In this document: positions 9,743 through 59,043 of the stretch, in pieces
How positions within the stretch are numbered: position 1 is the first letter of the stretch
Layout: each line of letters opens with the position of its first letter
Source: Candidatus Sungiibacteriota bacterium
GTDB lineage: Bacteria > Patescibacteriota > Minisyncoccia > Sungbacterales > JACQCQ01
Direction: 5' to 3'
NCBI GenBank assembly: GCA_016201505.1
Contig: JACQCQ010000009.1
Coordinates: forward strand, 1,991 to 65,990
DNA length: 64,000 bases
The notes under the pieces: generated by a model
The model's input: only the letters and a program-made list of their open reading frames with translations
Told to the model about the DNA's origin: nothing
Database searches by the model: none
Program-made: the position numbers and the translations under genes

Positions 9743-10429
9743 ATGAGCCAAGCAGGAAGGATCCCGACTTGTATCGGCATTATTCCCGATGGCAATCGCC
9801 GCTGGGCGAAGGCTAACGGCCTCTCGTCGCTCGAGGGCCATCACGCCGGGTATCAAAAATTTAAGGAAGTAGTCCATTGGGCTTTTGAGCGCGGCGTGTC
9901 CACGGTGATTTTTTATGCTTTCTCGACTGAAAATTGGCGACGTGAACCCAAAGAAGTTAAATATTTAATGAAAATGCTGGAATGGGTTTTGTCGAGCGAA
10001 GTCGATGAACTGCATACGGAGGGCATTCGAGTTCGCGTCATCGGCGATATCCGATCACTTTCCGACAGGCTCCAAGAGTTAGTTCGTAAAACCGAGGCGA
10101 AAACAAAAGATAATGCAAATGGGACTGTTGCGATTTTGCTCTCTTACGGGGGCAGAAAAGAAATCATGGAAGCTTTAAAAAAAGCGCGGCTTGATCCCTC
10201 GCTCGCGGCCGAAGAAAGTTTTGCCAAACTCTTATGGACAGAGGAATTGCCCGACCCTGATTTGGTCCTGCGGACGAGCGGCGTTAAACGCCTGTCTAAC
10301 TTTTTGATCTGGCAGACGGCCTACAGCGAGCTTTTTTTCTCCGATACGCTCTGGCCGGATTTTTCGAGGCCGGAATTTGAGGCGGTACTCGCCGAATTCG
10401 CCGAACGTGAGCGAAGATTCGGCGCCTAA
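9743..10429 (+). CDS. uppS: Isoprenyl transferase (undecaprenyl diphosphate synthase)
   Basis: IIPDGNRRWA, FSTENWRR and RTSGxxRLSNFLxWQ motifs. ATG at 9743 (the track ORF starts earlier in frame). Confidence 0.85.
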   Translation: MSQAGRIPTCIGIIPDGNRRWAKANGLSSLEGHHAGYQKFKEVVHWAFERGVSTVIFYAFSTENWRREPKEVKYLMKMLEWVLSSEVDELHTEGIRVRVIGDIRSLSDRLQELVRKTEAKTKDNANGTVAILLSYGGRKEIMEALKKARLDPSLAAEESFAKLLWTEELPDPDLVLRTSGVKRLSNFLIWQTAYSELFFSDTLWPDFSRPEFEAVLAEFAERERRFGA

Positions 10430-10430
10430 G

Positions 10431-10455
10431 AAAAAATCCCTTAGCGGGATTTTTT
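10431..10455. terminator. Bidirectional hairpin aaaaaatccc-ttagc-gggatttttt
   Basis: Perfect 10-bp stem with an A-tract on one side and a T-tract on the other, immediately after the uppS stop. Confidence 0.55.
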
Positions 10456-10674
10456 CTTAGGCTTGACCAGTCGTTTCAGCGACCTTTTATGCTTTCGTTT
10501 CAGCAGTGTTCCCAACTGCAGCCCATCTTTCCCTAGGGTGCGGTGGTAGATTTGCTGAAGCGTTCCGATCTTGGTATCGTTTCGCTTTCGGCGCAATTTG
10601 CCCGAACTTTTTACTCGAGAGCGCGAGCCTCGCATACCGGGGGCATCCTTGGCTTTTTTTTGCCGTCGTTTCAT
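10441..10674 (-). CDS. Hypothetical very basic small protein (possibly spurious)
   Basis: Lys/Arg-rich 77 aa ORF with no recognised family; its 3' end overlaps a terminator hairpin. Confidence 0.25.
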   Translation of the reverse strand: MKRRQKKAKDAPGMRGSRSRVKSSGKLRRKRNDTKIGTLQQIYHRTLGKDGLQLGTLLKRKHKRSLKRLVKPKKKSR

Positions 10675-10787
10675 CCCGTTAGAAGCAGATCGCGATAAAT
10701 GCTGCTTTCCGCTTAATTAGTTTTTTAATTTTATTAAACAAAGTTTTATGTCCAAAGATTCTACCGTGATCGCGGCTTCTAACGGGA

Positions 10788-11276
10788 TCAATCTGATTTT
10801 ACCCGAAGTTTTTGCGCCTTGTTGCGATCGCGTTTCGGCAGCTTAACGGTCAGCAGGCCGTTTTTCATTGAAGCTTCGGCTTCATCGGAAATAATCTCTT
10901 GCGGCAGGATAATAGATCTGACAAACGACCCCCAGTAGAGCTCCTGGTAGAAGAAATTTTCTTCACGCACCTCATTCGTTCTCGAGCGTTTTCCGCGGAT
11001 GGTGACCATTTCATCCGTTACTTGCACATCGAGGTCCTCGGGTTTTACGCCGCCGACGATGGCCTGCACCGTGACATAATCCCCGTCGTCAAAAATATCA
11101 ACCGAGAGTTCGCCCTCCTCGACAGTCTCCGCCTCCCCCTCTGGTGCTGCTTCAAGTTCTGGTTTTGCGGCTTCGGCAATTTTTTTTGTAGTTTGTGAAA
11201 TTCGCTCGCGCGGCGGCTCGGACGGCGTGGGCGCGGGTTTCGATCCCGTCAGTCTTTCAAAAAAAGATTTTGCCAT
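10788..11276 (-). CDS. Hsp20/alpha-crystallin family small heat-shock protein
   Basis: Alpha-crystallin domain (DIFDDGDYVTVQAIVGG...MKNGLLTVKLPK). Confidence 0.8.
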   Translation of the reverse strand: MAKSFFERLTGSKPAPTPSEPPRERISQTTKKIAEAAKPELEAAPEGEAETVEEGELSVDIFDDGDYVTVQAIVGGVKPEDLDVQVTDEMVTIRGKRSRTNEVREENFFYQELYWGSFVRSIILPQEIISDEAEASMKNGLLTVKLPKRDRNKAQKLRVKSD

Positions 11277-11302
11277 AGAATTGAGAGCTGATGTTCAAAA
11301 AA

Positions 11303-12022
11303 TTATCCGGCCGTCTCTCCTTTCAATTTATGAAAATCAATCAAAATAACGATGAGCGCCGAGGAGAGAAGGGCGGCCAGGTAGAGCGCGCTGCCCGGCA
11401 GATGGTCTTTCAATATAATAAGGTAGTCAAATCCGGCATGCAAGCAGGCCGCAGCCAGGATGCCGAGGGCGATAACATGTTTCCGGTGGGGAGAAAACCA
11501 AGCTCGGGCAATGGCGTAGCCCACGACGCCGGAAGACAAGGCATGCAGAAAGTTGGCGCCAATAAATCGAGCGATGGATAATTTGGCGCCGAGGATTAAG
11601 TTTCTGCCAATCAGCATTTGCGGATTGTAACTTTGATTGAAGAGAAACAGGATATTCTCCATCGCCGCAAAGCCCATGCCGGCGGTCATCATATAAATCA
11701 TGGCGTCAATCGGTTCGTTAAAATCCTTTCGGGAGAAAGCCAGTAATTTTGCCGCCAGGTATTTGGCGTATTCCTCAACCAGCGCCACGATAAAAAATGT
11801 AAAGAAAAAATTCGTAAACGGGTCGGTTTTATAAAACAGCGCTTCTTGCGCGAGCAAAGCAAAAATGGCCGCGGCCGCCCCGCCCAAAAACGTGATTAAA
11901 ATAAGATGCACGGGTTCGGCATGCCGATCCTCCCGCAGGTAAATCAAAAGCCAAATGATCGGCGGAATAACGCCAAGCGCCAGAAATCCCGAGCTGGTGG
12001 AAACAACGGCCGCGTAATCCAT
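11303..12022 (-). CDS. PrsW-family intramembrane metalloprotease
   Basis: EExxK motif (ALVEEYAKYLAAK), FxxxH, and HxxxD-like (ACLHAGFDY) in a multi-TM protein. Confidence 0.65.
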   Translation of the reverse strand: MDYAAVVSTSSGFLALGVIPPIIWLLIYLREDRHAEPVHLILITFLGGAAAAIFALLAQEALFYKTDPFTNFFFTFFIVALVEEYAKYLAAKLLAFSRKDFNEPIDAMIYMMTAGMGFAAMENILFLFNQSYNPQMLIGRNLILGAKLSIARFIGANFLHALSSGVVGYAIARAWFSPHRKHVIALGILAAACLHAGFDYLIILKDHLPGSALYLAALLSSALIVILIDFHKLKGETAG

Positions 12023-12159
12023 CCCGTTAGAGGCGGACCTGCCTGCCGGCAGGCAGGATCGCGATCAAACGCGTTCGCCGCACAATAATTTTATAAATTG
12101 ACATATATCTAATATATAACTTTTGCGGTCGCGGCCTCTCACGGGATCCATTTTTTTAT

Positions 12160-12225
12160 TGTCTACCGTCTACCGACTACAGTCTACTGCCTAAACCTTT
12201 GCGGTAGTCAATGTCAGTAGCCCGT
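12160..12225. repeat. Leader-repeat family copy (gtctaccgtctaccgactacagtctactg...gcggtagtcaatgtcagtag)
   Basis: Same word composition (CTACAG/GACTAC/GGTAGTC) as the copies at 26432, 44505, 45410 and 46010. Confidence 0.5.
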
Positions 12226-12234
12226 GGTCTTTAA

Positions 12235-14493
12235 TCAGTGTCGGGGCCAAGGCTCAATCATGAGCAATCTTTTTTCTTTCACGGGCAGATGCTCCCAAAT
12301 GGCTTCGGTCACGTAGGGCATAAAAGGATGCAGTAAAATCAAGCTAGTTTTTAAGATCGTGTAGATCAAAATTTTTGCCGCTTCTCGGTCTTTTTCATCA
12401 TCTGATTGGAGCCGCGGTTTCGCCGACTCGATGATTGTGTCGGCGAAGGTGTGCCAGAAATAATGGTAGAGAGTTTCCGCGGCGTGATGGAACTTAAACG
12501 CTTCCATATCTTGGCTGACTTGTTTTGTGAGCCCATCCAAGTCTTTTAGCAGTTTTTTGTCATGCTTCGTTAGCTTGGCTTTTTTCGCATTCGGCTCCGT
12601 ATCTTCGAGATGAATCAAGACAAACCGCGAAGCATTCCAAATCTTATTGGCAAAATTTCGATAGCCGCGGATTTTATCTTCAGAGATAATCGGATCATTC
12701 CCCGGCGTGTTGCCGACAACCAGCGACATGCGAACGGCGTCGGTGCCGTATAATTCTGCGACACCCAGCGGGTCAATTACATTGCCCTTTGATTTTGACA
12801 TTTTCTGCCGATCCTGATCGCGGACGAGGCCATGCAGATAGACTTTTTTAAACGGCACTTTCCCGGTCCGGTACATGCCAAGCATAATCATGCGAGCCAC
12901 CCAAAAAAAGAAAATATCCCAGCCCGTTTCCATGACTGAAGTCGGGTAAAATTCTTTAAAATCTTTGCCGTCAGGATAGCCGAGCGCCAAAAACGGCCAC
13001 TGGCCGGATGAAAACCAGGTATCAAGAACGTCCGGATCTTGAATAAGATTATGATCGCCGCATGCGGGGCATTGGAGAGGCGCTTCCTTTGAAACAATCG
13101 GGGGGCAGCCCTCCCTCGCTCTGCCGGAGCTTTGGCGGGCGCTCAATTCTCTGGCCGCACCCTCGTCGCGGAGAAAATTGGCGCAAAACCAGGCCGGAAT
13201 GCGAATGCCCCAGCTAATCTGGCGCGAAATATTCCAGTCGCGGAGCCCTGACATCCAATGATAAAAAACTTTTTCAAATCGCTTCGGGATGAACTCGATT
13301 TGTTTTGATTTAATGGCCTTTACGCCGAGATCGCGCAGCGAAGTTTTTGTATTTCCTTTGTCGGTCATTTTTACAAACCACTGCGGGATGACCATCGGCT
13401 CAATAATGCCGCCCGATCTCGCCGAAACCGCGACCGAATGTTTATATGACTCATCGATTTTAGTAACGAGGCCCTTGGCTTGCATATCTTCTACGACCTT
13501 TTTGCGCGCTTCTTCGACTTTCATCCCCTGATAGGGCCCAGCCCGTTCATTCATTCGTCCGTATTTGTCGATGACCTGCTTGATTTCAAGATTATGCCGC
13601 AAGGCGATTTCAAAGTCGGCCGCATCATGCGCCGGCGTTACTTTGACAACACCCGTGCCGAATTCGGGGTCGACCGCCGCATCTGCGATGACCGAAATTT
13701 TTGCTGGTCCCAAAACTGTTTCAATATCAATCATCTGGCCGACAAATTCCCTGTATCGTTTGTCTTTCGGGTTTACCGCGACCGCTGTATCACCAAATTT
13801 AGTCTCGGGACGAACTGTCGCGAGTTCCAACGGCCCGTATTTTATGAAATAGAGCGGATCATTGCGCTCTTCGTATTTTATTTCTAAATCGGAAAGCGCT
13901 GTTTGATCTTTGACCGACCAATTGATGATGCGCCTCCCGCGATAAATGAGACCATCTTGATACATTTGGACAAATGAATCCTCTACTTTTCCAACGATGT
14001 CGGCATCAAGCGTAAATTTTTCTCTAGACCAATCGCATGAAGCGCCCAGTTTGCGTAACTGGTTTTCCATGACGACTTTATTTTTTTGCGTGAACTCGAA
14101 AATTTGGCTGTACAATTCTTCACGCGAAAAATCTGACCAGCGCTTGCCTTCTTTTTCCAACTTTTTTCGATAGACAAATTCGGTTTCGATGCCGGCGTGA
14201 TCGGCGCCCGGCAGCCAAAGCGCTACTCGCCCGCGCATGCGCTCGAACCTCGTCATAATATCCTGAAGCGTCACGAATAAGGCGTGGCCGATATGGAGTG
14301 CTCCGTTCGCATTCGGCGGCGGCATGATGATGGAAAATAGCTCTTTCTGCTTACCGGCCTTACCCCGCGAAACTCCAGTTGAGCGGAGTGGGGGCAGTTT
14401 GTCGGGATTAAAAAAACCAGACGCTTCCCAGCGCTTGTAAATCGCACCTTCTACTTTTTGCGGCAGATAAGCCCCGTTAGGAAATGTATCCAT
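12235..14493 (-). CDS. valS: Valine--tRNA ligase (class I aaRS; compact form without C-terminal coiled coil)
   Basis: PPPNANGALHIGHA (HIGH), KMSKSKGNV (KMSKS) and DWNISRQISWGIRIP; 752 aa. Confidence 0.7.
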   Translation of the reverse strand: MDTFPNGAYLPQKVEGAIYKRWEASGFFNPDKLPPLRSTGVSRGKAGKQKELFSIIMPPPNANGALHIGHALFVTLQDIMTRFERMRGRVALWLPGADHAGIETEFVYRKKLEKEGKRWSDFSREELYSQIFEFTQKNKVVMENQLRKLGASCDWSREKFTLDADIVGKVEDSFVQMYQDGLIYRGRRIINWSVKDQTALSDLEIKYEERNDPLYFIKYGPLELATVRPETKFGDTAVAVNPKDKRYREFVGQMIDIETVLGPAKISVIADAAVDPEFGTGVVKVTPAHDAADFEIALRHNLEIKQVIDKYGRMNERAGPYQGMKVEEARKKVVEDMQAKGLVTKIDESYKHSVAVSARSGGIIEPMVIPQWFVKMTDKGNTKTSLRDLGVKAIKSKQIEFIPKRFEKVFYHWMSGLRDWNISRQISWGIRIPAWFCANFLRDEGAARELSARQSSGRAREGCPPIVSKEAPLQCPACGDHNLIQDPDVLDTWFSSGQWPFLALGYPDGKDFKEFYPTSVMETGWDIFFFWVARMIMLGMYRTGKVPFKKVYLHGLVRDQDRQKMSKSKGNVIDPLGVAELYGTDAVRMSLVVGNTPGNDPIISEDKIRGYRNFANKIWNASRFVLIHLEDTEPNAKKAKLTKHDKKLLKDLDGLTKQVSQDMEAFKFHHAAETLYHYFWHTFADTIIESAKPRLQSDDEKDREAAKILIYTILKTSLILLHPFMPYVTEAIWEHLPVKEKRLLMIEPWPRH

Positions 14494-14873
14494 AGACTCA
14501 CAACAAATTTTATAGGCTGATATTCAGATTTTCAGATATAAATCTCAAGTTAAATTTTCTAACGGGGTAAACTTGCCATGGTCAAATTTCTTCGATATAT
14601 CTAAAGCGGGCTCGTGGTTAGCGTACCATAGAGAAGAACGCTCGTTCCATTCTTGAAATTTCGGCCTTGAGGAGGTGAATAGGCAGTCATGAATTTTTAC
14701 CTCTGCGAATTCAGTGATCTCGAGCCGGTCATCGCGGCGAGACTCGCCGAAGAAGGTTTCTGTCCCGGAATTCCCCAGTGCGGCATTCGGGCTAAGGATT
14801 ATCGCGCGGGGAAGTGCGATCTCGAAGGCTGTCCCCGGCGAGCCCGGGAGAAGGCCTATCTGCAAACCACTGG

Positions 14874-19406: not shown

Positions 19407-21584
19407 TTGAGGTTTAATTTTCTCGCGGGGTATACTTTTTATATGTTGACAGCGGAAACGCCAATCGAAAAATTGCCGAAGGTAATTCCGGCACTCGCTA
19501 AACGGCTGCATCACCTGGGCATTAAAACCGTTCGCGACCTCTTATTTCATTTTCCCGCCCGCTATGATGATTTTACAAATGTAAAATCCATCGGCGATTT
19601 GACAATCGGCGAAATTGCGACCATTTCAGGCCGCATTAAAAAAATTTCATCAACCCGCGCCTGGCGCCGCCGTATGTCCATTACGGAGGCGATTGTCGAA
19701 GATGATTTAGATTCGATACGCGTCATTTGGTTTAATCAGCCCTACCTCGTCAAAACCTTGCCGGTTGGTTCGCGAGTGAGTCTGGCGGGAAAATTAACCA
19801 CATCCAAGCGCGGCGAATATTTTGCCAACCCAGCATATGAAAAAATCGGAATGTCAGACGGCCTGCGGCATACCGGCGGATGGGTGCCCATTTATCCCGA
19901 GACGACTGGGCTTACCTCGCGCTGGATTCGGTTTCTGATGCGTGAAGTCGCCCCCGTTATAAAAAAAATTCCCGATCCCTTGCCGTCGGCCTTGCTTAAA
20001 AAAAGCACCTTACTTCCGCTTGAGCGCGCGCTTAGTAAAATCCATTTTCCTGAATCAAAAGACGAGTACGAAGAAGCTCGCAAGCGCTTCGCCTTCGAGG
20101 ATATTTTATTGATTCAGCTGCGCGTGTTGATGTCCAAAAAACAACTGGAAGAAAAAAAAGCGCCGCCGATTCCTTTAGGCCTCGAAGAAATTAAAAAGTT
20201 TATCGCCTCTCTCCCGTTCTCCTTAACCGATGGCCAACGCCGGGCCGCCTGGGACATCATGCGGGACACGGCAAAATCGGTGCCCATGAACCGCCTGCTG
20301 GAAGGCGATGTCGGATCGGGAAAAACCGTTGTGGCCGCGCTCACCTCGTTTAATGCCATCAGGTCCGGCTACCAGGTGGCCTATCTCGCGCCAACCGAAA
20401 TCCTGGCCATCCAGCATTTTAATACCTTAAGGCACTGGCTCTCTCCGTTTGGCGTTTACGTGGGTCTCCTGACAGCGGCGCATAAAAAATTTATTTCAGA
20501 TTACGGCGAGAGAGACCGAGTAAGCATCAGGAGCATGACCGAGGCGGGCGAAATTCCTATGCTGATCGGAACCCAGGCGGTGATCCAAGACGGCGTCAAA
20601 TTTAAAAACTTGGGTCTCGTGATTGTTGACGAACAGCACCGCTTCGGGGTCGCACAACGCGCCAAGCTGCTTCGGCAAAAGCAAACAGGCAATAGCCAAG
20701 AGGACTATTCCCCATCCCTCATCCCCCATTTTCTCTCCATGACGGCAACGCCCATCCCGCGAACTCTCGCGCTTACCATTTACGGCGATCTCGATGTTTC
20801 AATTTTAAATCAAGTCCCTCAAGGACGAAAGCCGATTGTGACCAAAATTGTGCCGGAAGAGAAAAGAAGCGCCTGCTATCAATTCATCCGAGACGAGGTG
20901 CATCGCGGCCGCCAAGTTTTTGTTATTTGTCCCAGAATTGAATTAAACGAGGAAATGGGAAATGGGAAATGGGAAATGGGAAATGTTTTGCGAGAAGAGG
21001 TGAAAGCCGTCAAAACCGAGTATGAAAAATTATCAAAACAAATTTTCCCTGACTTAAAAGTCGCCATGCTCCACGGCAAAATGAAATCAAAAGAGAAAGA
21101 AAATGTTATGCGCGATTTTAAAGAGGGAAAATCGGATGTCTTGATTTCAACTTCAGTGATTGAAGTTGGTGTCGATGTGCCGAATGCCACGATTATGTTA
21201 ATTGACGGAGCGGAAAAATTCGGGCTGGCGCAAATTCATCAGTTCCGCGGCCGGGTGGGCAGAGCCTCGCATCAGTCGTATTGTTTTTTAATGACCGGCT
21301 CAAGGGCCGCAGCAGAATCACAACGCTTAAAAGCCTTGGTTACTGCCAAAAATGGATTTGAACTGGCCGAAAAAGATCTCGCCATCCGCGGCCCCGGAGA
21401 TTTTTTGGGCACGCGCCAATCCGGCATCCCGCCCTTTGCTTATAAAAGTTTTAATGATCTGGAACTGGTTCAATCATCTCGCGATGCGGCGCGGGAGATT
21501 ATCGAGAAAGATCCGAAACTGGAGAGGCACGTCGCGCTGCAGAAAAATCTGGTGAAATTTGAAGAGACCGTGCACTTTGAATAA
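19407..21584 (+). CDS. recG: ATP-dependent DNA helicase RecG
   Basis: TDGQRRA, GDVGSGKT (Walker A), DEQHRFGV (DEQH), helicase C motifs (QFRGRVGR). Possible later start at 19443. Confidence 0.85.
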   Translation: MRFNFLAGYTFYMLTAETPIEKLPKVIPALAKRLHHLGIKTVRDLLFHFPARYDDFTNVKSIGDLTIGEIATISGRIKKISSTRAWRRRMSITEAIVEDDLDSIRVIWFNQPYLVKTLPVGSRVSLAGKLTTSKRGEYFANPAYEKIGMSDGLRHTGGWVPIYPETTGLTSRWIRFLMREVAPVIKKIPDPLPSALLKKSTLLPLERALSKIHFPESKDEYEEARKRFAFEDILLIQLRVLMSKKQLEEKKAPPIPLGLEEIKKFIASLPFSLTDGQRRAAWDIMRDTAKSVPMNRLLEGDVGSGKTVVAALTSFNAIRSGYQVAYLAPTEILAIQHFNTLRHWLSPFGVYVGLLTAAHKKFISDYGERDRVSIRSMTEAGEIPMLIGTQAVIQDGVKFKNLGLVIVDEQHRFGVAQRAKLLRQKQTGNSQEDYSPSLIPHFLSMTATPIPRTLALTIYGDLDVSILNQVPQGRKPIVTKIVPEEKRSACYQFIRDEVHRGRQVFVICPRIELNEEMGNGKWEMGNVLREEVKAVKTEYEKLSKQIFPDLKVAMLHGKMKSKEKENVMRDFKEGKSDVLISTSVIEVGVDVPNATIMLIDGAEKFGLAQIHQFRGRVGRASHQSYCFLMTGSRAAAESQRLKALVTAKNGFELAEKDLAIRGPGDFLGTRQSGIPPFAYKSFNDLELVQSSRDAAREIIEKDPKLERHVALQKNLVKFEETVHFE
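20951..20978 (+). repeat. (GGAAATG)x4 heptanucleotide tandem repeat inside recG
   Basis: ggaaatgggaaatgggaaatgggaaatg encodes ..EEMGNGKWEMGN.. in a loop of the helicase C-domain. Confidence 0.8.
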
Positions 21585-25176: not shown

Positions 25177-25234
25177 TTTTATTTTTAATCCACCGCTCCC
25201 CTTTCCCCATTTCCCATTCTCTATTCCCTATTTC

Positions 25235-28010: not shown

Positions 28011-31000
28011 ATGGATATCGGCGAAGTAAAAAATCGAGAAATAGTGGCGGAAATGCAGGAGTCGTATTTGGATTATGCGATGTCGGTTATTGTCTCTCGG
28101 GCTCTGCCCGATGTACGAGACGGATTAAAGCCCGTCCATCGCCGCATTCTCTATGCCATGCATTTACTCCATTTAACGCGCCAATCCAAACATCGAAAAT
28201 CGGCATTGGTGGTTGGCGAGGTGCTGGGTAAATTCCATCCGCACGGGGATGTGGCGGTGTATGACTCAATGGTGCGGCTGGCGCAGGATTTTTCGATGCG
28301 GTACCCCTTAATCGACGGGCAGGGAAATTTCGGTTCGGTGGACGGCGACGGAGCCGCCGCCATGCGGTATTGCATCACCGGCGATACGCGCGTTGTCACA
28401 GATAAAGGCCTTATTCCAATCCAAGAAATTTCCGAGAGCGGGCATGAAGACATCTCAATTTCTGTGTTATCAAAACATAGCATTCAAAATAAAGCGACCA
28501 AATGGTTTGATAGCGGATTTCATCCCACGATTAAAATCGAGACTCGTTCTGGTCAGTCGCTCCAAGGTTCATATAATCACCCTATTTTAATCTGGGCTAA
28601 AAATCCCGTAAGCGGATCGCCTGAATTTCGTTGGAAACTCTTAAGTCAATTGAAAATCGGCGACGTGGCAGTCGTTGATCGCAGGGCCGACACTTTGTGG
28701 CCTAAGGCCGAGCCTTCTCTTTTGCCATACGAGCCCAAAATTCTCGGCAGGAGACAAAAGAAAGTGTTGCCTCAATCTCTGTCTTCTGATCTTAGTTTTC
28801 TCTTAGGTTCATTAACCGCTGAAGGAACCTTAAAAGAACATGCATTGGGATTCTGCAGTAGTGACCTCAATTGGATAGAAGAGTTCAGTCAAAAATGGCA
28901 ACTGGTATTTCCCGATTGCAGATTGCATTCATTCCGGCGCAATCCAAATTCATACGGCAAAAAATCTTATTTTACTCATGAAATTCATTCTCGTCACGTC
29001 ATCGAGTTTCTTAAAAATTTGGGGCTCTCTCCGGTAAAATCAGTCGATCGACAGGTCCCCGGAGTCGTATTTAAAGGCACGAAGTCAACGGTCGCCTCAT
29101 TTTTACGAGCTTATTTTGAAGGCGGCGGGAGCATAAGCTTCAGCGGGAAAATGACAGAGTTGAGCTGTTGCTCGAAGAGTGAGATTCTTTTAAAACAAAT
29201 TCAAATTCTTCTGCTTCGTTTTGGGATCGCCTCCACGCGGCGATATGACCGCTATAAATTAACACACAAAATTTATATTCGCGGACTGGCTAATTGCCGT
29301 CTCTTCCAAGAAGCCATCGGCTTTAATTCCAAAGAGAAACAAGAAACGCTTGAAATGGCTATTCAAAGATTGCATAAAGAATACCCCGCGACAGATTTTA
29401 TTCCGTTCATCAGCGATTTTGTTCGAACGAATGAAAATCGGGCGGTTCGTTTTCGCGAGCGCAGCTTTATGCATAAGCCTAACTTCGATCGGTACGGCTC
29501 TCTTAAAACAAACGGCGAAGCAATTCTTAACCTTCTTCGACCAAGCATTCAATCGGAAATCGGATTTCTGTTTCAAGAATTAATTGAGCAGAATTATTTC
29601 TTTGATCCGGTGGTAAAAATTGAAGCGGGCGGAGTCCACAGAGTCTATTCTATTAAAGTTGAAAGCACCTGCCACTCATTTGTGGCGAACGGGTTTATCA
29701 ACCATAACACCGAAGCACGGATGGCCGATATCACCGCGCTACTCCTTGAAGACATTGATAAAGAGACCGTTGACTTCGCGGATAACTATGACGGGACGCA
29801 AAAAGAGCCGCGCGTTTTGCCGGCGGCGGTGCCCAATTTGTTACTAAACGGCACGCTCGGGATCGCGGTTGGCATGACCACCAATATTCCGCCGCACAAT
29901 TTAACTGAAGTCATTGATGCGGCCGTAACACTGATTGATAAACCCAAATCCACCAATGATGACCTGCTTGAATATGTAAAGGGACCCGATTTTCCGACGG
30001 GCGGCGTCATCTACAACGAAAAAGAAATTAGGGAGGCTTATGCCACCGGCAAGGGCTCGATTGTGATGCGCGGGGTGGCGGAAATTGGCGAAAAGAAAAA
30101 CGGCTATCAGATCATCATCAGCGAAATCCCCTATCAGGTAAATAAATCCGAGTTAATCGAGAAAATTGCCGATCTCGTAAAAGAAAAAAAGATTGAGGGC
30201 ATCCGCGATCTGCGTGATGGGTCGGATCGGGAAGGTATGCGCATTGAGATTGACCTAAAAGCCGACAGCTATCCGCAGAAAGTTTTAAATAATCTATTTA
30301 CGCATACGGATCTAGAAAAGCGCTTTCATATCAATATGTTGGCGCTCGTCGACGGCATCCAGCCGCAGGTTCTGTCGCTTAAATCGATCCTGGAGGAATA
30401 TTTAAAGCACCGATTTCAAATTGTCACGCGGCGCAGCACATTTGATCTGGCCCGCGCCAAAGACCGCGCTCATATTTTAGAAGGACTGAAAAAAGCGCTC
30501 GACAATATTGATAAAGTTATCGACACGATTAAAAAATCGGCCGATCGGGACGTAGCGCGCGATAATTTAATCAAAAAGTTTTCTTTGTCCGAAAAACAAG
30601 CACTCGCCATTTTGGAGATGCGGCTGGCCACACTTGCTGGTCTCGAGCGGCAGAAAATCGAGGCTGAATTAAAAGAAAAACTGGCCTTAATCCGCGATCT
30701 GGAAGCCTTACTAAAAGATCCAGCCAAAATTCAGACGGTGATTAAAAAAGAATTAGTAGCTACACGCGAGAAATACGGTGATGAGCGGAAGACGAAAGTC
30801 ATCAAATCCGCCGTTCGCGAATTTTCCGATGAAGATTTGATTCCCGAAGAGGAGACACTGGTGGTGGTGACCCGCGGCGGCTACATCAAGCGGGTAAAAC
30901 CGGAATCCTACCGCATGCAAAAGCGCGGCGGCAAGGGGTTGATTGGCATTGAAACGAAAGAAGAAGACGTGGTCGAACATCTAGTTTCGGCGAGCACTCA

Positions 31001-31787
31001 TTCGGATCTTTTGTTTTTTACCTCATCCGGCAAAGTTTTTCAGGTGAAAGCCTATGAGATTCCCGAAGCCTCCAGGACCGCCAAGGGCAAGGCCATTTTT
31101 AATTTCCTTTCGGTAAATCAAGATGAATTAATCACCTCGATTTTAGCTGCTCCCAAAACGCGGGCGCGCCGCGGCGAAAGAGAAAAATCGGAATTCTTTG
31201 TGATGCTAACGCGCCGCGGCGTGATTAAAAAAGTAGAGGCCTCGGCTTTTGGCGATGTGCGACATTCGGGCTTAATCGCCATCGGCTTAAAATCAGATGA
31301 TACGCTGGGCTGGGTTAAATTAACCAATGGCGCCCATGATATTATCGCGGTCACTAAATTGGGCCAGGCCATCCGGTTCTCCGAGCGTGATGTCCGAGCC
31401 ATGGGACGTACCGCCTCCGGCGTTACCGCCCTGCGGCTTAAAAAATCAGACGAAGTCGTCGGCATGGACGTGGTGATTGATGCCGGCGCTAATCTTTTGG
31501 TTATCATGTCGCAAGGCTACGGCAAGAAGACCCCCTTAAAACAATATAAGCGGCAGAAACGCGGCGGCTCGGGCATTAAAACAGCCAAAGTCGTACCCAA
31601 AAACGGCTACGTCATTTCGACTCACGTCATCCAGGCTGAAGAAACCCAACTCGTCTGCATTTCGCGCAAAGGCCAGGTCATTCGGATTGAGCTTTCGGCC
31701 ATTCCAACGCTCGGCCGCGCCACCCAGGGTGTTCGCATCATCCGACTCGAGACCTCGGACGCGCTCGCCTCAATGACGACGTTTTAA
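28011..31787 (+). CDS. gyrA: DNA gyrase subunit A containing an in-frame intein (extein ~812 aa)
   Basis: GyrA N-terminus ([21 protein letters not shown]), active-site AAMRY followed by CITGDTRV (intein N-terminus). ...FINHN|TEARMADI restores the GyrA sequence, and the C-terminal beta-pinwheel repeats follow. Confidence 0.9.
28371..29708 (+). mobile_element. GyrA intein (446 aa) with LAGLIDADG homing-endonuclease domain
   Basis: Cys1 after MRY (canonical gyrA-a insertion site) and C-terminal HN followed by Thr+1. Internal LAGLIDADG-like blocks [10 protein letters not shown] and [12 protein letters not shown]. Confidence 0.8.
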
Positions 31788-39441: not shown

Positions 39442-39644
39442 GTGTCGATGGGCCAGAGTTTCAAATTTGATGCTAAGACGGTATGCTGACGGAGCGCCGA
39501 GATGGCGGAACCCAGCACCAAATTCCGAGATGAGAAAAACTTTCATATTGCCCGTGGTCATGTCTTTAATTCATCCTGATCTGATTTGCGGATAAATTTG
39601 TAGAATTGATGCTGGGCGAGCTGGTATATCTACCCCGTACCAAT

Positions 39645-39726
39645 GCCTCTGTGGCGGAACTGGAATACGCGCGCGGCTTAGAACCGCGTGGGGAAACCCT
39701 TACAGGTTCAAATCCTGTCAGAGGCA
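39645..39726 (+). tRNA. tRNA-Leu (anticodon TAG), embedded in an extended hairpin
   Basis: ggcggaactggaatacgcgc D-arm typical of tRNA-Leu, anticodon loop cTTAGaa, long variable arm, T-loop ttcaaat. Flanks ccccgtaccaat and attggtacgggg extend the acceptor stem by 12 bp. Confidence 0.85.
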
Positions 39727-39749
39727 TTGGTACGGGGCGCGTACGGCCT

Positions 39750-39797
39750 GTAACCATATCCCGAAGGTCTTGAGGGTTCGACTCCCTCTCTCGACAC
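39750..39797 (+). other. Orphan tRNA 3'-half-like fragment (T-arm gagggttcgactccctc plus acceptor-3' tctcgaca)
   Basis: Canonical T-arm and acceptor strand with no matching 5' half nearby. Confidence 0.35.
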
Positions 39798-44504: not shown

Positions 44505-44570
44505 ATGACTACCGACTACCGCCCACAGTCTACGGCACTAGGCGTAGTCTGTAGTCAGTCGACTGTAGAC
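44505..44570. repeat. Leader-repeat family copy upstream of the 44499 start
   Basis: gactaccgactaccgcccacagtctacggcactaggcgtagtctgtagtcagtcgactgtagac. Confidence 0.5.
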
Positions 44571-44796
44571 ATTATAAAAAAACGAGCTCGACCTTTTAAC
44601 CCCGTTAGAAAAATACCTTGTGCTTCAGCTTAAAACTTAAATGCGAAGCTCTAACGGGGTGAACTGAACTTTAGTATAGCATTGTCGTTTATAGGCTCAA
44701 GAGTTTTAGCGGTTTATTTTTCGACGCGATTATTGACATATGCATATTTATATGATATAAGACATGAAGATTTGATCATTCTAGTTTCTTGGGGGT

Positions 44797-45409: not shown

Positions 45410-45477
45410 GTCTACAGTCTACTGGCTACAGACTACGGCGCATTGAAGCTGTAGTCGGTAGACGGTAGTCGGTAGCC
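45410..45477 (+). repeat. Leader-repeat family copy immediately upstream of rplJ (~90% identical to 46010-46077)
   Basis: tctacagtctactggctacagactacggcgcattgaagctgtagtcggtagacggtagtcggtagcc. Confidence 0.6.
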
Positions 45478-45483
45478 AAAGCA

Positions 45484-46009: not shown

Positions 46010-46077
46010 GTTTACAGTCTACTGGCTACAGACTACGGCATATTGAAGCGGTAGTCGGCGGACGGTAGTCAGTAGTC
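46010..46077 (+). repeat. Leader-repeat family copy immediately upstream of rplL
   Basis: tttacagtctactggctacagactacggcatattgaagcggtagtcggcggacggtagtcagtagtc. Confidence 0.6.
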
Positions 46078-46085
46078 ATAAATCA

Positions 46086-47761: not shown

Positions 47762-47800
47762 GCGCGCATAGCTTGGTGGCAGAGCGTTCGATTTCGCGGA
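47762..47800 (+). pseudogene. Mini pseudo-tRNA (tRNA-Val-like acceptor plus D-arm joined directly to a T-loop)
   Basis: gcgcgcatagcttggtggcagagcg|ttcgatttcgcgga; the D-arm is nearly identical to that of the neighbouring tRNA-Val. Confidence 0.35.
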
Positions 47801-47834
47801 CACTTAGTTCAGTGGTAGAACGTCGCATTCATTC
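47798..47834 (+). other. 5' half of a split tRNA (acceptor, D-arm, anticodon stem tcgca and loop ttCATtc; anticodon CAT)
   Basis: Pairs with the 3' half at 47949-47983: anticodon stem tcgca/tgcga is perfect and acceptor ggacact/agcgtcc matches 6 of 7. Confidence 0.4.
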
Positions 47835-47851
47835 ATCCCATTAGATTTCCT

Positions 47852-47923
47852 GGGTGATTAGCTCAGTGGCAGAGCGTTGCATTCACATTGCAAAGGCCAC
47901 AGGTTCGATACCTGTATCACCCA
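47852..47923 (+). tRNA. tRNA-Val (anticodon CAC)
   Basis: gggtgattagctcagtggcagagcg-ttgca-ttCACat-tgcaa-aggcc-acaggttcgatacctgt-atcaccc-a. Confidence 0.8.
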
Positions 47924-47948
47924 CTCAAATAAATCTAACGGGACAAGT

Positions 47949-47983
47949 TGCGAAGGCCGCTGGTTCGATCCCAGCAGCGTCCA
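47949..47983 (+). other. 3' half of the split tRNA (anticodon stem 3' strand, variable loop, T-arm, acceptor 3' strand)
   Basis: tgcga-aggcc-gctggttcgatcccagc-agcgtcc-a. Confidence 0.4.
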
Positions 47984-49590: not shown

Positions 49591-49661
49591 CGGGCTGTAG
49601 TATACCGGTAGTACGCGTGCTTTGGGAGCATGTAGACTGGGTTCAATTCCCAGCAGCCCGA
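49591..49661 (+). tRNA. tRNA-Pro (anticodon TGG), C1:G72 acceptor pair
   Basis: cgggctg acceptor, anticodon loop ttTGGga (G37), T-loop ttcaatt. Confidence 0.8.
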
Positions 49662-49887
49662 TTGTAAGGATTTCTAACGGGATGAAGGAGCACGTAGTCC
49701 AAGTTCTTCGCCAGCCGGCGGATCGATAGCCCAACTAGAAAAGTCTATAAAGTCTATCTATATAAGAATTTACCCCTGCGTCCTAGGAGGACGCAGGGGG
49801 CATTGGCCGTTGTTTCACTTCAGTATCTCTTCCAGTCGGCCGATGAGGTAGACAGCGCAGTTTGGGTTATATCCCGACTGATTAAAC

Positions 49888-56502: not shown

Positions 56503-56797
56503 ATAGCATTGCAGGTCTCGACCTCTGCTGAGGTTTGGCGAATCGTTCGGAAAACTTAAGAAGGTCTCTTTCTAAAGAGGCAAAAGGCTGTCTTTAAACT
56601 GTTGCGAAATTTTTTTTCGACGAGACTCTTTCATTGAACGGTTGGCTTGTTTCAGCAGCGGGTTCGAGTGCCCGCTGTTTTAAGTTCCAGATAGTTTAAT
56701 ATGAACGTGGTGCGAGTATACTGCAAACATATACAATCGTCAACGATTTTAGGTTTTAGCTATTCGTTTATGAGCCTAGAATGATAGAATTAAGCTA

Positions 56798-57030
56798 TGA
56801 ATCCCGTTAGAGAATGAATCAGAGACTACATTTCGAACATGAAACTCACGACACATAAAGACATGAGACCAGCAACAGAGTTAGTAGTTAATTCTCTAAC
56901 GGGATGAATCCCGTTAGAGAATGAATCAGAGACTACATTTCGAACATGAAACTCACGACACATAAAGACATGAGACCAGCAACAGAGTTATTAGTTAATT
57001 CTCTAACGGGATGAATCCCGTTAGAAGCCG
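56798..57030 (+). repeat. Tandem direct repeat, 107-bp unit x ~2.2, each unit bounded by the cccgttagaga...tctctaacggg inverted repeat
   Basis: Units start at 56798, 56905 and 57012 and differ at one position. Lies upstream of gpmI. Confidence 0.85.
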
Positions 57031-57239
57031 TGATCGTCGAAAGATCAAAAACAATGTGACGCCGGATAAATTAGATAATTTAATGCAGACTCCGCGTAGG
57101 GTCGCGATCCCGCTACCACAAAGCCTTCATGGATTTGACTACGGGACAAGCCTAACTATGACAGACTTACTATTCACTACGGCTCACCCCGTAGTCACCG
57201 AGCACGCGAGGTGTACTACCGGGGTCTCTCTCTAACGGG

Positions 57240-58844
57240 ATGAAAGCCTATAAACCCGTCGTACTCATCGTCATGGATGGATTCGGCGTTTCCTTGGAAG
57301 AAAAAGGCAATCCCGTCGCGCTCGCCAAAAAACCGACGCTGGATTTATTTGACGCCAATTTTCCCATGACGACACTGCAGGCTTCAGGCGTCGCCGTCGG
57401 GCTGCCCTGGGGCGAGGCGGGAAACTCGGAGGTCGGCCATTTAACCATGGGCACCGGCCGCATCAACTATCATCACCTGCCGCGGATTATCTACTCGATT
57501 CGTGACGGCAGTTTTTTTGAAAATCCGGCCTTTCTGCACGCCGCCGAGCACGTTAAAAAAAATAATTCAAAACTGCATATCATTGGGCTTGTTTCATCCG
57601 GCTCGGTCCACAGCTACATCGATCATCTGTATGCACTGTTAAAATTTGTTGAACTGCAGGGTCTTGCGCAGGCATTTTTGCACGTTATTACCGATGGCAA
57701 AGATTCTCCGCCGCAGGAAGGCGTTAAATTTTTAGCGCAACTTGAAGAAAGAATGATTAAAGAATTTCCGCAGACGAAAATCGCCTCAGTTGTCGGCCGA
57801 TTTTTTGCCATGGACCGCGATGAAAAATGGGATCGGATTGAGAAAGCTTATCAGTTGTGGACCGAAGCCAAAGGCAGTCCGATAACGAATATATCCGAGT
57901 ATGTATCGAGCGAATACCAAAACGGGCGCAGTGACGAATTTGTTGAACCCGGCTATGTCGCGCCAAATAATGCTCCCTTGGCTACGATCCACGACGGCGA
58001 CGCAGCCATTATTTTTAACTTCCGTGAGGATTCAGTCAGAGAAATTTCGCATGCCCTTATTGACCAGGTTTTTGATCGCTTCCCGCGAACGCAGGTCGCC
58101 GATTTATTTTTGGCGACGATGACGATGTATGAAGATTCACTCGCCGCCGAAGCGGCGTTTCCGCCGCTTCAGGTCAGTTATCCGCTCGCCCGCGTCATTT
58201 CGGACGCCGGCCTGCGGCAACTCCATATTGCCGAAACGGAAAAATACGCGCATGTAACCTATTTTTTCAATGGCGGGCGTGAAAAACCGTTTCCCAGCGA
58301 AGAACGCATACTCGTCTCCTCGATTTCGACCGCCCATTTTGATGAAGTACCCGAGATGAAAGCGGCCGATATTACAGCCAAAGTTATTGCCGAGCTCCCG
58401 CGGCATGATTTTGTCTTGGTTAATTTTGCTAACGCCGATGTGGTGGGCCATTCCGGCAATCAAGCAGCGGCCATCAAGGCAGTTGAGTCGGTTGATCGCT
58501 GTATCGGCGAAATTTATGAGGCGGTCGCGCGTGAGGGCGGCGTTTTAGTGGTCACCGGAGACCACGGCAACGTCGAGGCCAAACGCAACCTGCTGACGGG
58601 CGAGCGGCTGACCGAGCACTCATTAAATCCCGTACCGTTCTATTTAGTCGGGGCAGACTTTCGTGTTTCAGTGGCCCGCTCTCGCGATGAAGTGATCAAA
58701 CAGAAGAAAGAAACCGGCGGCATTTTAACCGATGTGGCGCCGACCATCATTGAGCTGATGGGATTAAAAAAGCCGCTTGAGATGACGGGAAGCTCGTTGC
58801 TACCCATGCTGATCTCACAGCACTTTGTTCACCCCGTTAGTTGA
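57240..58844 (+). CDS. gpmI: 2,3-bisphosphoglycerate-independent phosphoglycerate mutase
   Basis: PVVLIVMDGFG N-terminus, SEVGHL, metal-binding His/Asp blocks (VVTGDHGN). Confidence 0.9.
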   Translation: MKAYKPVVLIVMDGFGVSLEEKGNPVALAKKPTLDLFDANFPMTTLQASGVAVGLPWGEAGNSEVGHLTMGTGRINYHHLPRIIYSIRDGSFFENPAFLHAAEHVKKNNSKLHIIGLVSSGSVHSYIDHLYALLKFVELQGLAQAFLHVITDGKDSPPQEGVKFLAQLEERMIKEFPQTKIASVVGRFFAMDRDEKWDRIEKAYQLWTEAKGSPITNISEYVSSEYQNGRSDEFVEPGYVAPNNAPLATIHDGDAAIIFNFREDSVREISHALIDQVFDRFPRTQVADLFLATMTMYEDSLAAEAAFPPLQVSYPLARVISDAGLRQLHIAETEKYAHVTYFFNGGREKPFPSEERILVSSISTAHFDEVPEMKAADITAKVIAELPRHDFVLVNFANADVVGHSGNQAAAIKAVESVDRCIGEIYEAVAREGGVLVVTGDHGNVEAKRNLLTGERLTEHSLNPVPFYLVGADFRVSVARSRDEVIKQKKETGGILTDVAPTIIELMGLKKPLEMTGSSLLPMLISQHFVHPVS

Positions 58845-59043
58845 TTTATAGCAGTGAAACTAATCTTAACAGGGATCTATTCAAGCCTAAGGTCAGATCA
58901 ACTGACGGGGCAAGCCCATTACGCGGATAGGAGGCGATCAAACACGAGCGCACGGTGGGAAAGTTCTTGCTAGATTCCGTATAAGTCGAGCTCCGGTAAC
59001 ACAGAAGAATTCGCCCCCCGCTTTTTACATAATTCTCGCAACC

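Follow-up and report, generated by a model that had tools for sequence, protein, structure and literature searches.

Small Inverted-Repeat Elements at Start Codons in Patescibacteria: A Probable MITE-Like Superfamily with Ends Common to Several Phyla

The nine-nucleotide word TCTAACGGG and its complement face each other in pairs among the genes of a 64,000-nucleotide stretch of DNA (hereafter the window; contig JACQCQ010000009.1, positions 1,991 to 65,990) from a Candidatus Sungiibacteriota bacterium, a member of the Patescibacteriota. We present evidence that the word is the core of the 13-bp ends of a superfamily of small, nonautonomous transposable elements resembling MITEs (miniature transposable elements with inverted repeats), a reading that we hold, from comparison of sequences, with a probability of about 0.7. 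On this reading the position of the pairs at gene boundaries would reflect where mobile elements insert or survive, namely at start codons. An initial annotation of the window had drawn attention to the pairs; the 13-bp arm, a short direct repeat that flanks the pairs, one pair that surrounds a gene for tRNA-Val, and the presence of the arms in many other phyla all go beyond what it described.

Results

A Word in Facing Pairs

The initial annotation held that the word and its complement recur as facing pairs, and a count in the window, with a check of spacing and orientation, bore this out. Both strands taken together, TCTAACGGG and its complement occur 14 times, as against 0.39 ± 0.58 (maximum 2) in 100 dinucleotide-preserving shuffles, an enrichment of 36-fold that is far above the expectation from base composition. 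The exact copies start at 10675−, 10778+, 12023−, 14558+, 44601−, 44650+, 47934+, 49673+, 56803−, 56895+, 56910−, 57002+, 57017− and 57231+. Four more copies with one mismatch (12137+, 14473−, 47837− and 58833−) complete pairs or add copies at gene ends, and exact and mismatched copies together make up eight CCCGTTAGA...TCTAACGGG pairs (E1 to E8 in Table 1). Along the plus strand the order is always CCCGTTAGA and then TCTAACGGG, with 40–205 nt between the arms, and the order left arm then right arm (L and R) was equally strict in 17 loci with two pairs. Only the arms at 49673 and 58833 are without a clear partner in the window. Every copy lies outside open reading frames (ORFs) or at their very edge: copies abut the ATG of gpmI, of a gene of the PrsW family and of a 77-aa ORF, and another is 1 nt from the stop codon of hsp20. 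The positions first given for the pairs proved right to within 2–11 nt; the partner of the arm at 10675, for example, starts at 10778 and not at 10767. A tandem repeat placed at 56798–57030, each unit of which was said to be bounded by the same pair, was confirmed as a 107-bp repeat at 56797–57025.

The elements measure 58–223 bp in the window and 28–280 bp elsewhere. Their anatomy was worked out on 145 pairs from the window and from other genomes, a set in which arm positions 1–9 are invariant by design of the search. The conserved part is, as first supposed, the terminal palindrome, and it is longer than had been noted: the arm is 13 bp, of the form Y-CCCGTTAGA-nnn ... nnn-TCTAACGGG-R, with the nine-nucleotide word as its invariant core. 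The outermost bases, outside CCC on one side and GGG on the other, are complementary in 97% of pairs and are T/A or C/G. Arm positions 10–12 are complementary in 93%–96% though variable (AT, GC, TA or CG), that is, they covary, and position 13 is usually a C.T mismatch. Beyond the arms the pairs fall into subfamilies. Types A and B have another short helix, GCGATC or GCGGTC, past an asymmetric internal loop, whereas types C and D have a local hairpin (AC-GGnnnnn-loop-nnnnnCC-TRYY) beside one arm; this subterminal hairpin adjoins the distal arm in about five of some 25 copies that bear one. The interiors are AT-rich and otherwise unrelated, even among copies of one genome, in agreement with the first description of the window, the two tandem units there excepted.

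The supposition that the pairs form long hairpins is supported by folding. Each window copy, as RNA or as single-stranded DNA, is predicted to fold into a structure closed by a stem of the two arms (z = −3.5 to −6.8), and the covariation at arm positions 10–12 is further evidence for pairing. The other suggestion made at the outset, that the palindrome is a binding site for a dimeric protein, found no support, the arms being 40–205 nt apart. In 21 of 110 elements of subfamilies A and B the gene-proximal arm, and only that arm, has one extra base (TCTAAACGGG or TCTAAGCGGG), which would bulge from the stem; metagenome contigs with this bulge are L128, L132, L140, L160–L162, L171, L182, L184, L198, L210, L213, L216, L226 and L234 (L-numbers denote comparison loci and contigs). 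Minimal forms of 28–30 nt consist of the two arms and a 3–10-nt loop (L082, 3406–3434; L111, 1263–1290). Across elements of 28–280 bp we saw no coding beyond short ORFs upstream of the invaded gene and no conserved peptide past MxPVR. The elements do not correspond to a known RNA family: only tRNAs scored above the Rfam gathering thresholds, and nothing credible appeared at E ≤ 5 over 10600–14650.

Table 1. Elements, Arms and Associated Features of the Window
Feature	Coordinates	Strand	Arms	Flanking 4-mers	Remarks
E1	10674–10787	−	10675–10683, 10778–10786	TTCA/TCAA	Subfamily (type) A (AGCCGCGATC.../...GATCGCGATCTGCT); base 10674 is the terminal base and also the A of the ATG of the 77-aa ORF (10441–10674, minus strand); hsp20 stop codon at 10788–10790
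E2	12022–12146	−	12023–12031 (exact), 12137–12145 (TCTCACGGG, one mismatch)	TCCA at 12018–12021 and 12147–12150	Gene of the PrsW family at 11303–12022 (minus strand)
E3	14472–14567	−	14473–14481 (CCCGTTAGG on the plus strand, one mismatch), 14558–14566	TAAG/TAAA	valS start codon at 14491–14493
E4	44600–44659		44601–44609, 44650–44658	TTAA/TGAA	60 bp; C/G terminal pair; intergenic, not flush with a long ORF
E5	47836–47943	+	47837–47845 (CCCATTAGA, one mismatch), 47934–47942	TTCA/CAAG	Intact tRNA-Val(CAC) gene at 47852–47924
tRNA-like gene split by E5	47798–47983	+			CAU in anticodon loop; 5′ half 47798–47832, 3′ half 47949–47983
Solitary TCTAACGGG-A arm	49673–49682	+			11 nt downstream of tRNA-Pro (49591–49661)
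Displaced native gpmI initiation region	56785–56802	+			TAGAAT box 56785–56790, 6-nt spacer (taagct), old start ATGAA(T) 56797–56802
E6	56802–56904	+	56803–56811, 56895–56903	TGAA at 56798–56801 and 56905–56908	First unit of the 107-bp tandem repeat
E7	56909–57011	+	56910–56918, 57002–57010	TGAA at 56905–56908 and 57012–57015	99% identical to E6
E8	57016–57240	+	57017–57025, 57231–57239	TGAA at 57012–57015 and 57241–57244	225 bp with terminal bases; interior unrelated to E6 and E7; base 57240 is the last base and also the A of the gpmI ATG
Short copy at the gpmI 3′ end	58832–58875	+	CCCGTTAGT (58833–58841); possible decayed partner TCTTAACAGGG at 58864–58874		Probably, and tentatively, a degenerate short copy

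Short Direct Repeats at the Flanks

Compared position by position in a 6-nt register, the two flanks of an element are identical with frequencies of 0.60, 0.83, 0.74, 0.76, 0.80 and 0.38, with background values just outside, as against 0.42, 0.74, 0.38, 0.40, 0.62 and 0.31 when the left flank of one element is set against the right flank of another. Identical 4-mers flank 94 of 144 elements, compared with 19.8 (maximum 31) under shuffled pairing, and an independent set of A/B elements from metagenomes gave 76 of 110. The duplicated 4-mers vary (TGAA, TGGA, TGAG, TAAA, CAAG, CGGG, TATA and others) and are mostly TNNA. Such direct repeats of fixed length and variable sequence are the signature of insertion at a staggered cut, which points to a DDE-type enzyme acting in trans. 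The base that adjoins each arm is complementary to its partner and is not duplicated, and the simplest reading of the flanks is accordingly a 4-bp target-site duplication plus one base supplied by the element at each end. A 6-bp duplication, or a 6-bp crossover region, was rejected because position 6 is not duplicated and because elements ending in C/G turn ATG into GTG.

In the window the duplication is clean for E2 (TCCA) and for E6, E7 and E8 (TGAA). The elements combine several features by which MITEs are recognized: inverted ends, a duplication of fixed length and variable sequence, and small size without coding capacity for a transposase. In tandem arrays neighboring units have a TGAA in common, as do the three elements before gpmI; each insertion would regenerate the preferred target on both sides and so give rise to arrays of this kind. 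We consider the element and this geometry of insertion probable. As to the initial view that the pairs mark gene boundaries, they do sit there; what they bracket appears to be inserted DNA rather than native intergenic DNA with a punctuation signal.

Probable Insertion at Start Codons

Of 144 elements, 74 have an ORF of 60 codons or more whose start coincides with the first base beyond one of the arms. Such start-flush elements account for 55 of 87 in Patescibacteria, against five of 38 in other named phyla. When the A/B elements from metagenomes were oriented by their own sequence, the flush ORF was on the same (R) side in 95 of 105; position and polarity relative to the gene are both fixed, at about 90% in subfamily A/B. 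The Patescibacterial target is usually A|TGAA (also TGGA or TGAG) at a start codon. The duplicated TGAA and the last base of the element (A or G) rebuild an ATG or a GTG flush against the arm, leaving the reading frame intact, and the original start, with its leaderless-type −10 box or Shine-Dalgarno sequence, is left beyond the distal arm as the start of an upstream ORF (uORF). Elements ending in C/G have GTG beside the proximal arm and keep ATG at the distal copy. Distal copies mostly read ATGAAT, ATGGAT or ATGAGT; a TAnnnT box stands 4–9 nt upstream in 28 of 74 (14.8 in shuffles), and others are preceded by a Shine-Dalgarno sequence of the AGGA/GGAG type. A Shine-Dalgarno sequence or −10 element beside the proximal ATG was rejected as an explanation: the spacing is zero, and a TAnnnT box occurs 4–9 nt before this ATG in only five of 74.

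The gpmI locus illustrates these relationships. The gene starts 437 bp past a displaced box region, after three elements, with its ATGAAA flush with the last arm. Its orthologues on L125 and L126 (72% and 69% identical) have no element and begin with TAGAAT-N6-ATG and TACAAT-N6-ATG, respectively. These sequences match the distal copy in the window, which argues that functional start codons, A|TGAA, had been the targets. In L001, the nearest relative with long synteny, a 100-N scaffold gap (9880–9979) falls exactly at the start of gpmI and could hide such repeats. Elsewhere in the window, E2 leaves a duplicate ATGGAT beyond its distal arm with a GACAAT box 6 nt upstream, and E3 contains the start codon and the first seven codons of valS, proximal arm included, with a TATAAAAT box inside the element upstream of the start. 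At the other end of gpmI, the final three codons ahead of the TGA stop (P V S) are supplied by the CCCGTTAGT arm. Some copies, above all outside Patescibacteria, lie instead at 3′ ends of genes, around tRNA genes or in ordinary intergenic DNA.

An Upstream Reading Frame That Runs into the Arm

The old AUG opens a short uORF (M-N/D/S-P-V-R...) that runs into the element. Both frames other than that of the gene meet a stop at the junction, a UAA in the arm, 4 nt before the AUG, and a UGA in an AUGA overlap if the duplication begins with TGA. In 22 of 61 elements no stop interrupts the uORF before the arm, as against 6.8 ± 2.3 with shuffled interiors (none of 2000 shuffles reached 22), and the result was replicated in the A/B metagenome set (24 of 77, against 8.9 ± 2.7). 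Sixteen of the 22 open uORFs end at the UAA of the arm and five at the AUGA overlap; in E8 a 74-codon uORF that begins with the ATG at 57011 ends with the TAA of the proximal arm. Lengths divisible by three, with which uORF and gene would be fused, are the rarest class (15 of 74 and 15 of 77). As only one open fusion was seen besides, in-frame translation of the element was rejected.

Openness beyond chance suggests translational coupling. The new AUG would lie at the foot of the arm–arm stem and be sequestered by it; ribosomes coming from the old AUG would melt the stem, stop at the UAA or the AUGA overlap and re-initiate at the new AUG. We put forward this mechanism, which we infer from the reading frames, as a possibility with somewhat less than even odds. 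Only insertions whose orientation and position preserve expression would survive, and this would explain both the location at gene boundaries and the fixed orientation. An internal promoter may contribute in some subfamilies and may matter where the uORF stops early: in one subgroup of type A an ATAAAAT some 40 nt ahead of the ATG is conserved, and valS in the window starts downstream of the TATAAAAT box inside E3. As a general feature such a promoter is not supported, −10-like boxes numbering 68 sense and 58 antisense, with a weak positional peak in the second set.

Distribution across Bacteria

With one genome taken per species, a scan for CCCGTTAGA-N75–105-TCTAACGGG gave at least 120 loci. 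The matches listed, classified by record title (labels of metagenome-assembled genomes, or MAGs, can be wrong), included about 74 loci from Patescibacteria, 11 from Omnitrophota, ten from Planctomycetota and nine from Desulfobacterota or 'Deltaproteobacteria', with one each from Edwardsbacteria, Stahlbacteria, Elusimicrobia, a Spirochaetia bin and a Gammaproteobacteria bin and 11 unclassified. Among these, exact arm pairs are carried by six or more phyla. Because the copies from outside Patescibacteria are distinct, with TAAA/TTTA duplications and GC-rich hairpins in their interiors, we take this breadth to be real. The left end of subfamily A/B was found on at least 120 metagenome contigs. 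In a syntenic relative (gpmI 68% identical) the word is not above chance, and the viral collection yielded three matches without the characteristic flanks. We found no description of these elements in the searchable literature, by sequence words or by topic (MITEs in these phyla), which does not prove that there is none; the superfamily is apparently undescribed.

The same genes carry start-codon elements in divergent genomes: ssb on five contigs (L162, L178, L185, L187 and L236), with protein identity down to 46%; murG on four (L142, L149, L222 and L228); rpsR (L162 and L184); a lepA-like gene (L135 and L188); and recR, rpiB and topA. In the ssb group the duplication tracks the second codon of each gene (TGTA or TGAA), which speaks for independent insertions or for turnover at a hotspot. 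Among the copies at murG and rpsR, both arms can change together from the GGTC to the GATC type. The interiors of the lepA-like pair are 78% identical, the proteins 42%.

Elements around tRNA Genes

E5 encloses an intact tRNA gene and itself splits a tRNA-like gene; when the element was deleted in silico, ARAGORN called a 72-nt tRNA whose acceptor stem has one A.C mismatch. In a MAG labeled Spirochaetia (L103, 432–575), a tRNA-Val(GAC) gene lies between the same arms with the same nonmatching flanks, TTCA ... CAAG, followed by a sequence resembling the 3′ half of a tRNA and a terminator, with no 5′ half adjacent. The resemblance suggests that a tRNA gene travels as cargo or else that an old composite has spread between lineages. 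The idea that the nested tRNA-Val represents a tRNA intron is not supported, there being no 5′ half beside it in L103. Within 450 nt of the solitary arm at 49673 we found no partner, allowing two mismatches. At a tRNA-Leu(TAG) gene (39633–39737) the acceptor stem is lengthened by a perfect inverted repeat of 11 bp, CCCCGTACCAA/TTGGTACGGGG, which resembles an arm (CCCCGTTAGAA), and a remnant like a T arm, GAGGGTTCGACTCCCTC, lies downstream at 39766–39797; the repeat may be a diverged member of the family that encloses the tRNA.

Discussion

Points against Transposition

Several observations weigh against reading the elements as transposable. No transposase or recombinase was recognized among the scanned ORFs of the window; no autonomous copy appeared in the window, in the 120 genome loci listed or on the 120 metagenome contigs listed; no arm pairs 0.4–4 kb apart with matching flanks were found; and no recurrent protein family lies beside the elements. 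Every complete left end among the metagenome matches listed has a right arm 60–130 nt away, sometimes with the one extra base in that arm, and lone arms are very rare. The predicted empty gpmI site had no match in the metagenome collection, and no pair of genomes from one species, with and without a copy, was found. In the window two or three copies, E1, E5 and perhaps E4, have no clean duplication. Three of the four flank positions agree in E3 and in E4; the 4-mers of E1, which are imperfectly alike, and those of E5 are no match. The interiors of copies from a single genome are unrelated to one another, which is unusual for a recent burst of MITEs. As to expression, two thirds of the uORFs stop early, so that coupling is not the whole story, and the −10-like boxes show little strand bias. 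Finally, among elements at murG and at rpsR arm identity is 77%–100% and interior identity 59%–86%, figures to be read with the caution that the searches demanded exact arms and so inflate arm conservation. Better conservation of arms than of interiors, which is not to be expected of a selfish relic that no longer moves, hints at a function at the level of the host, at repeated replacement or at insertion hotspots.

Alternative Explanations

If that hint is followed, the elements could be a start-codon module maintained by hosts across phyla, in which the stem is selected, the interior drifts or is swapped, and core genes (ssb, rpsR, murG, recR, topA, valS, gpmI and others) are under common control. 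Control could be exerted by unmasking of the AUG in dependence on the uORF, or by one conserved factor or nuclease that recognizes the identical stem. In a variant, the one-base bulge may mark a new kind of recombination that reads single-strand hairpins. We judge this module, with its variant, to be unlikely.

Two further explanations are each improbable in our estimation. One is that the pairs are folded, single-strand recombination sites, moved in the manner of attC or the attP of CTX phage by a tyrosine or HUH recombinase. It would fit with a conserved stem and a loop free to vary, with the covariation at positions 10–12, beyond which come a C.T mismatch that is fixed and a further short helix, and with the conserved extra base on the same arm (TCTAA[A/G]CGGG), which recalls the extrahelical bases of attC. 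The hexamers GTTAGA and TCTAAC equal the classical attC core hexamers, and in arrays the two arms that meet across 6 nt look like the core site of a recombinase. Integron attC sites are alike in other respects as well, with imperfect inverted repeats 55–140 nt apart, conserved outer boxes, a variable loop and an intergenic location. The order of the boxes differs: both strands of attC read AAC...GTT (5′-RYYYAAC ... GTTRRRY-3′), whereas every pair here reads GTTAGA ... TCTAAC. Moreover, the flanking 4-mer is specific to the copy and duplicated, which recombination at a crossover region would not produce, and an attC site was rejected on these two grounds. An integron context was likewise rejected, since no integrase domain was present among the scanned ORFs of the window and the neighbors are core genes (valS, gpmI, the PrsW-family gene, ssb and rpsR), housekeeping genes rather than cassettes.

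The other proposes that the elements now serve the host as a translational operator or an RNA-processing stem on start codons, under selection, with mobility as no more than their origin. The arms are identical across phyla and are conserved where the interiors at murG, ssb and rpsR have diverged; the start codon stands at the foot of a 13–15-bp stem; the orientation relative to the gene is fixed; openness of the uORF appears to be under selection; and the genes concerned include ssb, rpsR, rpsH, murG, recR, topA, lepA, fba, valS and gpmI. Part of the arm conservation, however, is forced by search patterns with exact arms. Close relatives do well without an element at gpmI, copies also turn up where genes end, around tRNA genes and in ordinary intergenic DNA, no asymmetry between G.U and A.C marks an RNA strand, and no Rfam family was found.

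Much less probable still are invertible promoter segments (invertons), flipped by a site-specific invertase to vary the phase of genes. Short inverted repeats around AT-rich segments of about 100 bp, with −10/−35-like boxes, directly upstream of genes, are what such a system would present; one repeat common to many loci with differing interiors is known from the Mpi-type invertons of Bacteroides, and the minority of copies with the subterminal hairpin at the distal arm could be taken for inverted segments. Against this, 4-bp duplications and duplicated start codons have no role in inversion, 90% of subfamily A/B is in a single orientation, −10-like boxes are about equal on the two strands, no invertase was found among the scanned ORFs of the window, and the 28–30-nt forms hold nothing to invert. 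A compositional or DNA-uptake signal, for which it could be said that Patescibacteria are thought to depend on DNA uptake and that neisserial uptake sequences are often inverted pairs near gene ends, can practically be dismissed, as can chance, since the enrichment refutes chance, pairing and order are strict, the flanks are duplicated, the same 13-bp ends occur in unrelated phyla, the word is not above chance in the syntenic relative, and many unpaired copies in coding DNA were not seen in 0.9 Mb of loci.

Comparison with Known Elements

The MITE-like reading places the elements beside Correia/NEMIS of Neisseria, ERIC, RUP and MITEAba12, with which they have much in common: a length of about 100–150 bp, noncoding sequence, terminal inverted repeats, a short duplication, an intergenic location and many copies. 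On transcription these bacterial MITEs, too, form long hairpins; they can alter the expression of neighbors, and we know of no autonomous partner for Correia or ERIC. They differ in being confined to a genus or family, in having conserved interiors and in duplicating TA or 9 bp rather than 4 bp; the present elements have in common 13 bp per end and a subterminal hairpin, across at least six phyla. What sets the superfamily apart from described bacterial MITEs is ends common to several phyla, unrelated interiors within a genome, and a start-codon niche with a rebuilt start and, if the mechanism holds, a coupled uORF. Placement on a start codon that is rebuilt is a feature of most Patescibacterial copies here. 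To our knowledge no other MITE has been described on start codons. Bacterial MITEs have been reviewed (PMC10969869, PMC11602168), and the large survey among these (PMC11602168) mentions neither Patescibacteria nor start codons.

Plant Stowaway and Tourist MITEs are a closer parallel in one respect, being defined by a terminal repeat of 10–15 bp and a fixed duplication, with unrelated interiors, and mobilized in trans by distant transposases. They are eukaryotic, duplicate TA or TAA and have no preference for start codons. A further parallel is piggyBac, which makes a 4-bp T..A duplication (TTAA, with variants TAAA and TCAA) at repeats of about 13 bp that start with CCC, and of which IS1380 is the prokaryotic relative (PMC10813416). 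In IS1380 the duplication is 4–5 bp. The 4-mers here are mostly TNNA, and the arm is CCCGTTAGA; on the other hand, an extra Y/R pair lies outside the CCC and the target is not TTAA. The 4-bp T..A duplication and the CCC-type ends recall a DDE transposase of the IS1380/piggyBac kind, which we offer as a lead only.

Small palindromic insertions tolerated at harmful positions are known from the RPEs of Rickettsia and the byps of Magnusiomyces mitochondria. RPEs are translated in frame, and byps are skipped by ribosomes, which take off and land at matching codons. The present elements differ in inserting at the start codon, the proposed rescue being a rebuilt start with uORF-coupled re-initiation. 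Ends of the IS200/IS605 type were rejected because the elements have inverted repeats with duplications rather than two direct hairpins by a fixed tetranucleotide; REP/BIME-like sequences because those lack a duplication; and a cyanobacterial HIP1 or STRR context because the gene content is Patescibacterial.

Implications

If the MITE-like reading is true, one mobile-element end of 13 bp spans Patescibacteria, Omnitrophota, Planctomycetota, Desulfobacterota and others, which would imply either frequent transfer across phyla or one conserved machinery in lineages poor in recognizable mobile DNA. It would reveal a route by which parasitic DNA can occupy a start codon without killing the gene, the start being rebuilt and the old one becoming a coupled uORF. 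This would bear on translation initiation in bacteria of the candidate phyla radiation, where use of Shine-Dalgarno sequences is low and leaderless genes look common. Annotation would be affected through false upstream starts, N-terminal extensions (valS in the window) and altered C termini (gpmI), and assembly gaps at gene starts would probably be caused by such elements as well. The conserved arms could be used to trace gene flow among uncultured groundwater bacteria and to seek a transposase or binding factor.

Other Features of the Window

The window carries, besides valS and gpmI, genes for the PrsW-family protease and hsp20, ribosomal protein genes L10/L12, recG, ftsH, RNase Y, trigger factor, clpP, purB and gyrA. 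The last of these (28011–31787) holds an intein that matches the Pfam families Intein_splicing and LAGLIDADG_3, the latter a homing-endonuclease domain of the LAGLIDADG type. The gpmI product is 100% identical to a protein listed by NCBI for a 'Candidatus Sungbacteria bacterium' MAG. Shine-Dalgarno sequences are few, and a TAnnnT box stands 6–9 nt before many ATGs (for example 14874, 16319, 34672, 35591, 38845 and 40709), which suggests that leaderless mRNAs are widespread in the window.

The nine tRNA genes stand one by one amid small ORFs; one of them is a tRNA-Ile with the anticodon TAT. A second, unrelated family of dispersed repeats consists of heptamer-like runs (CGGTAGT, CTGTAGT and CGGTAGA and their complements) at about 12152–12200, 25180–25234, 44505–44570, 45440–45483 and 46040–46085, which flank several genes, including rplJ and rplL. 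The recG ORF contains, at 20951–20985, a perfect tandem of five GGAAATG units (35 nt), and GGGAAAT-like runs follow stop codons at about 25200 and 47650.

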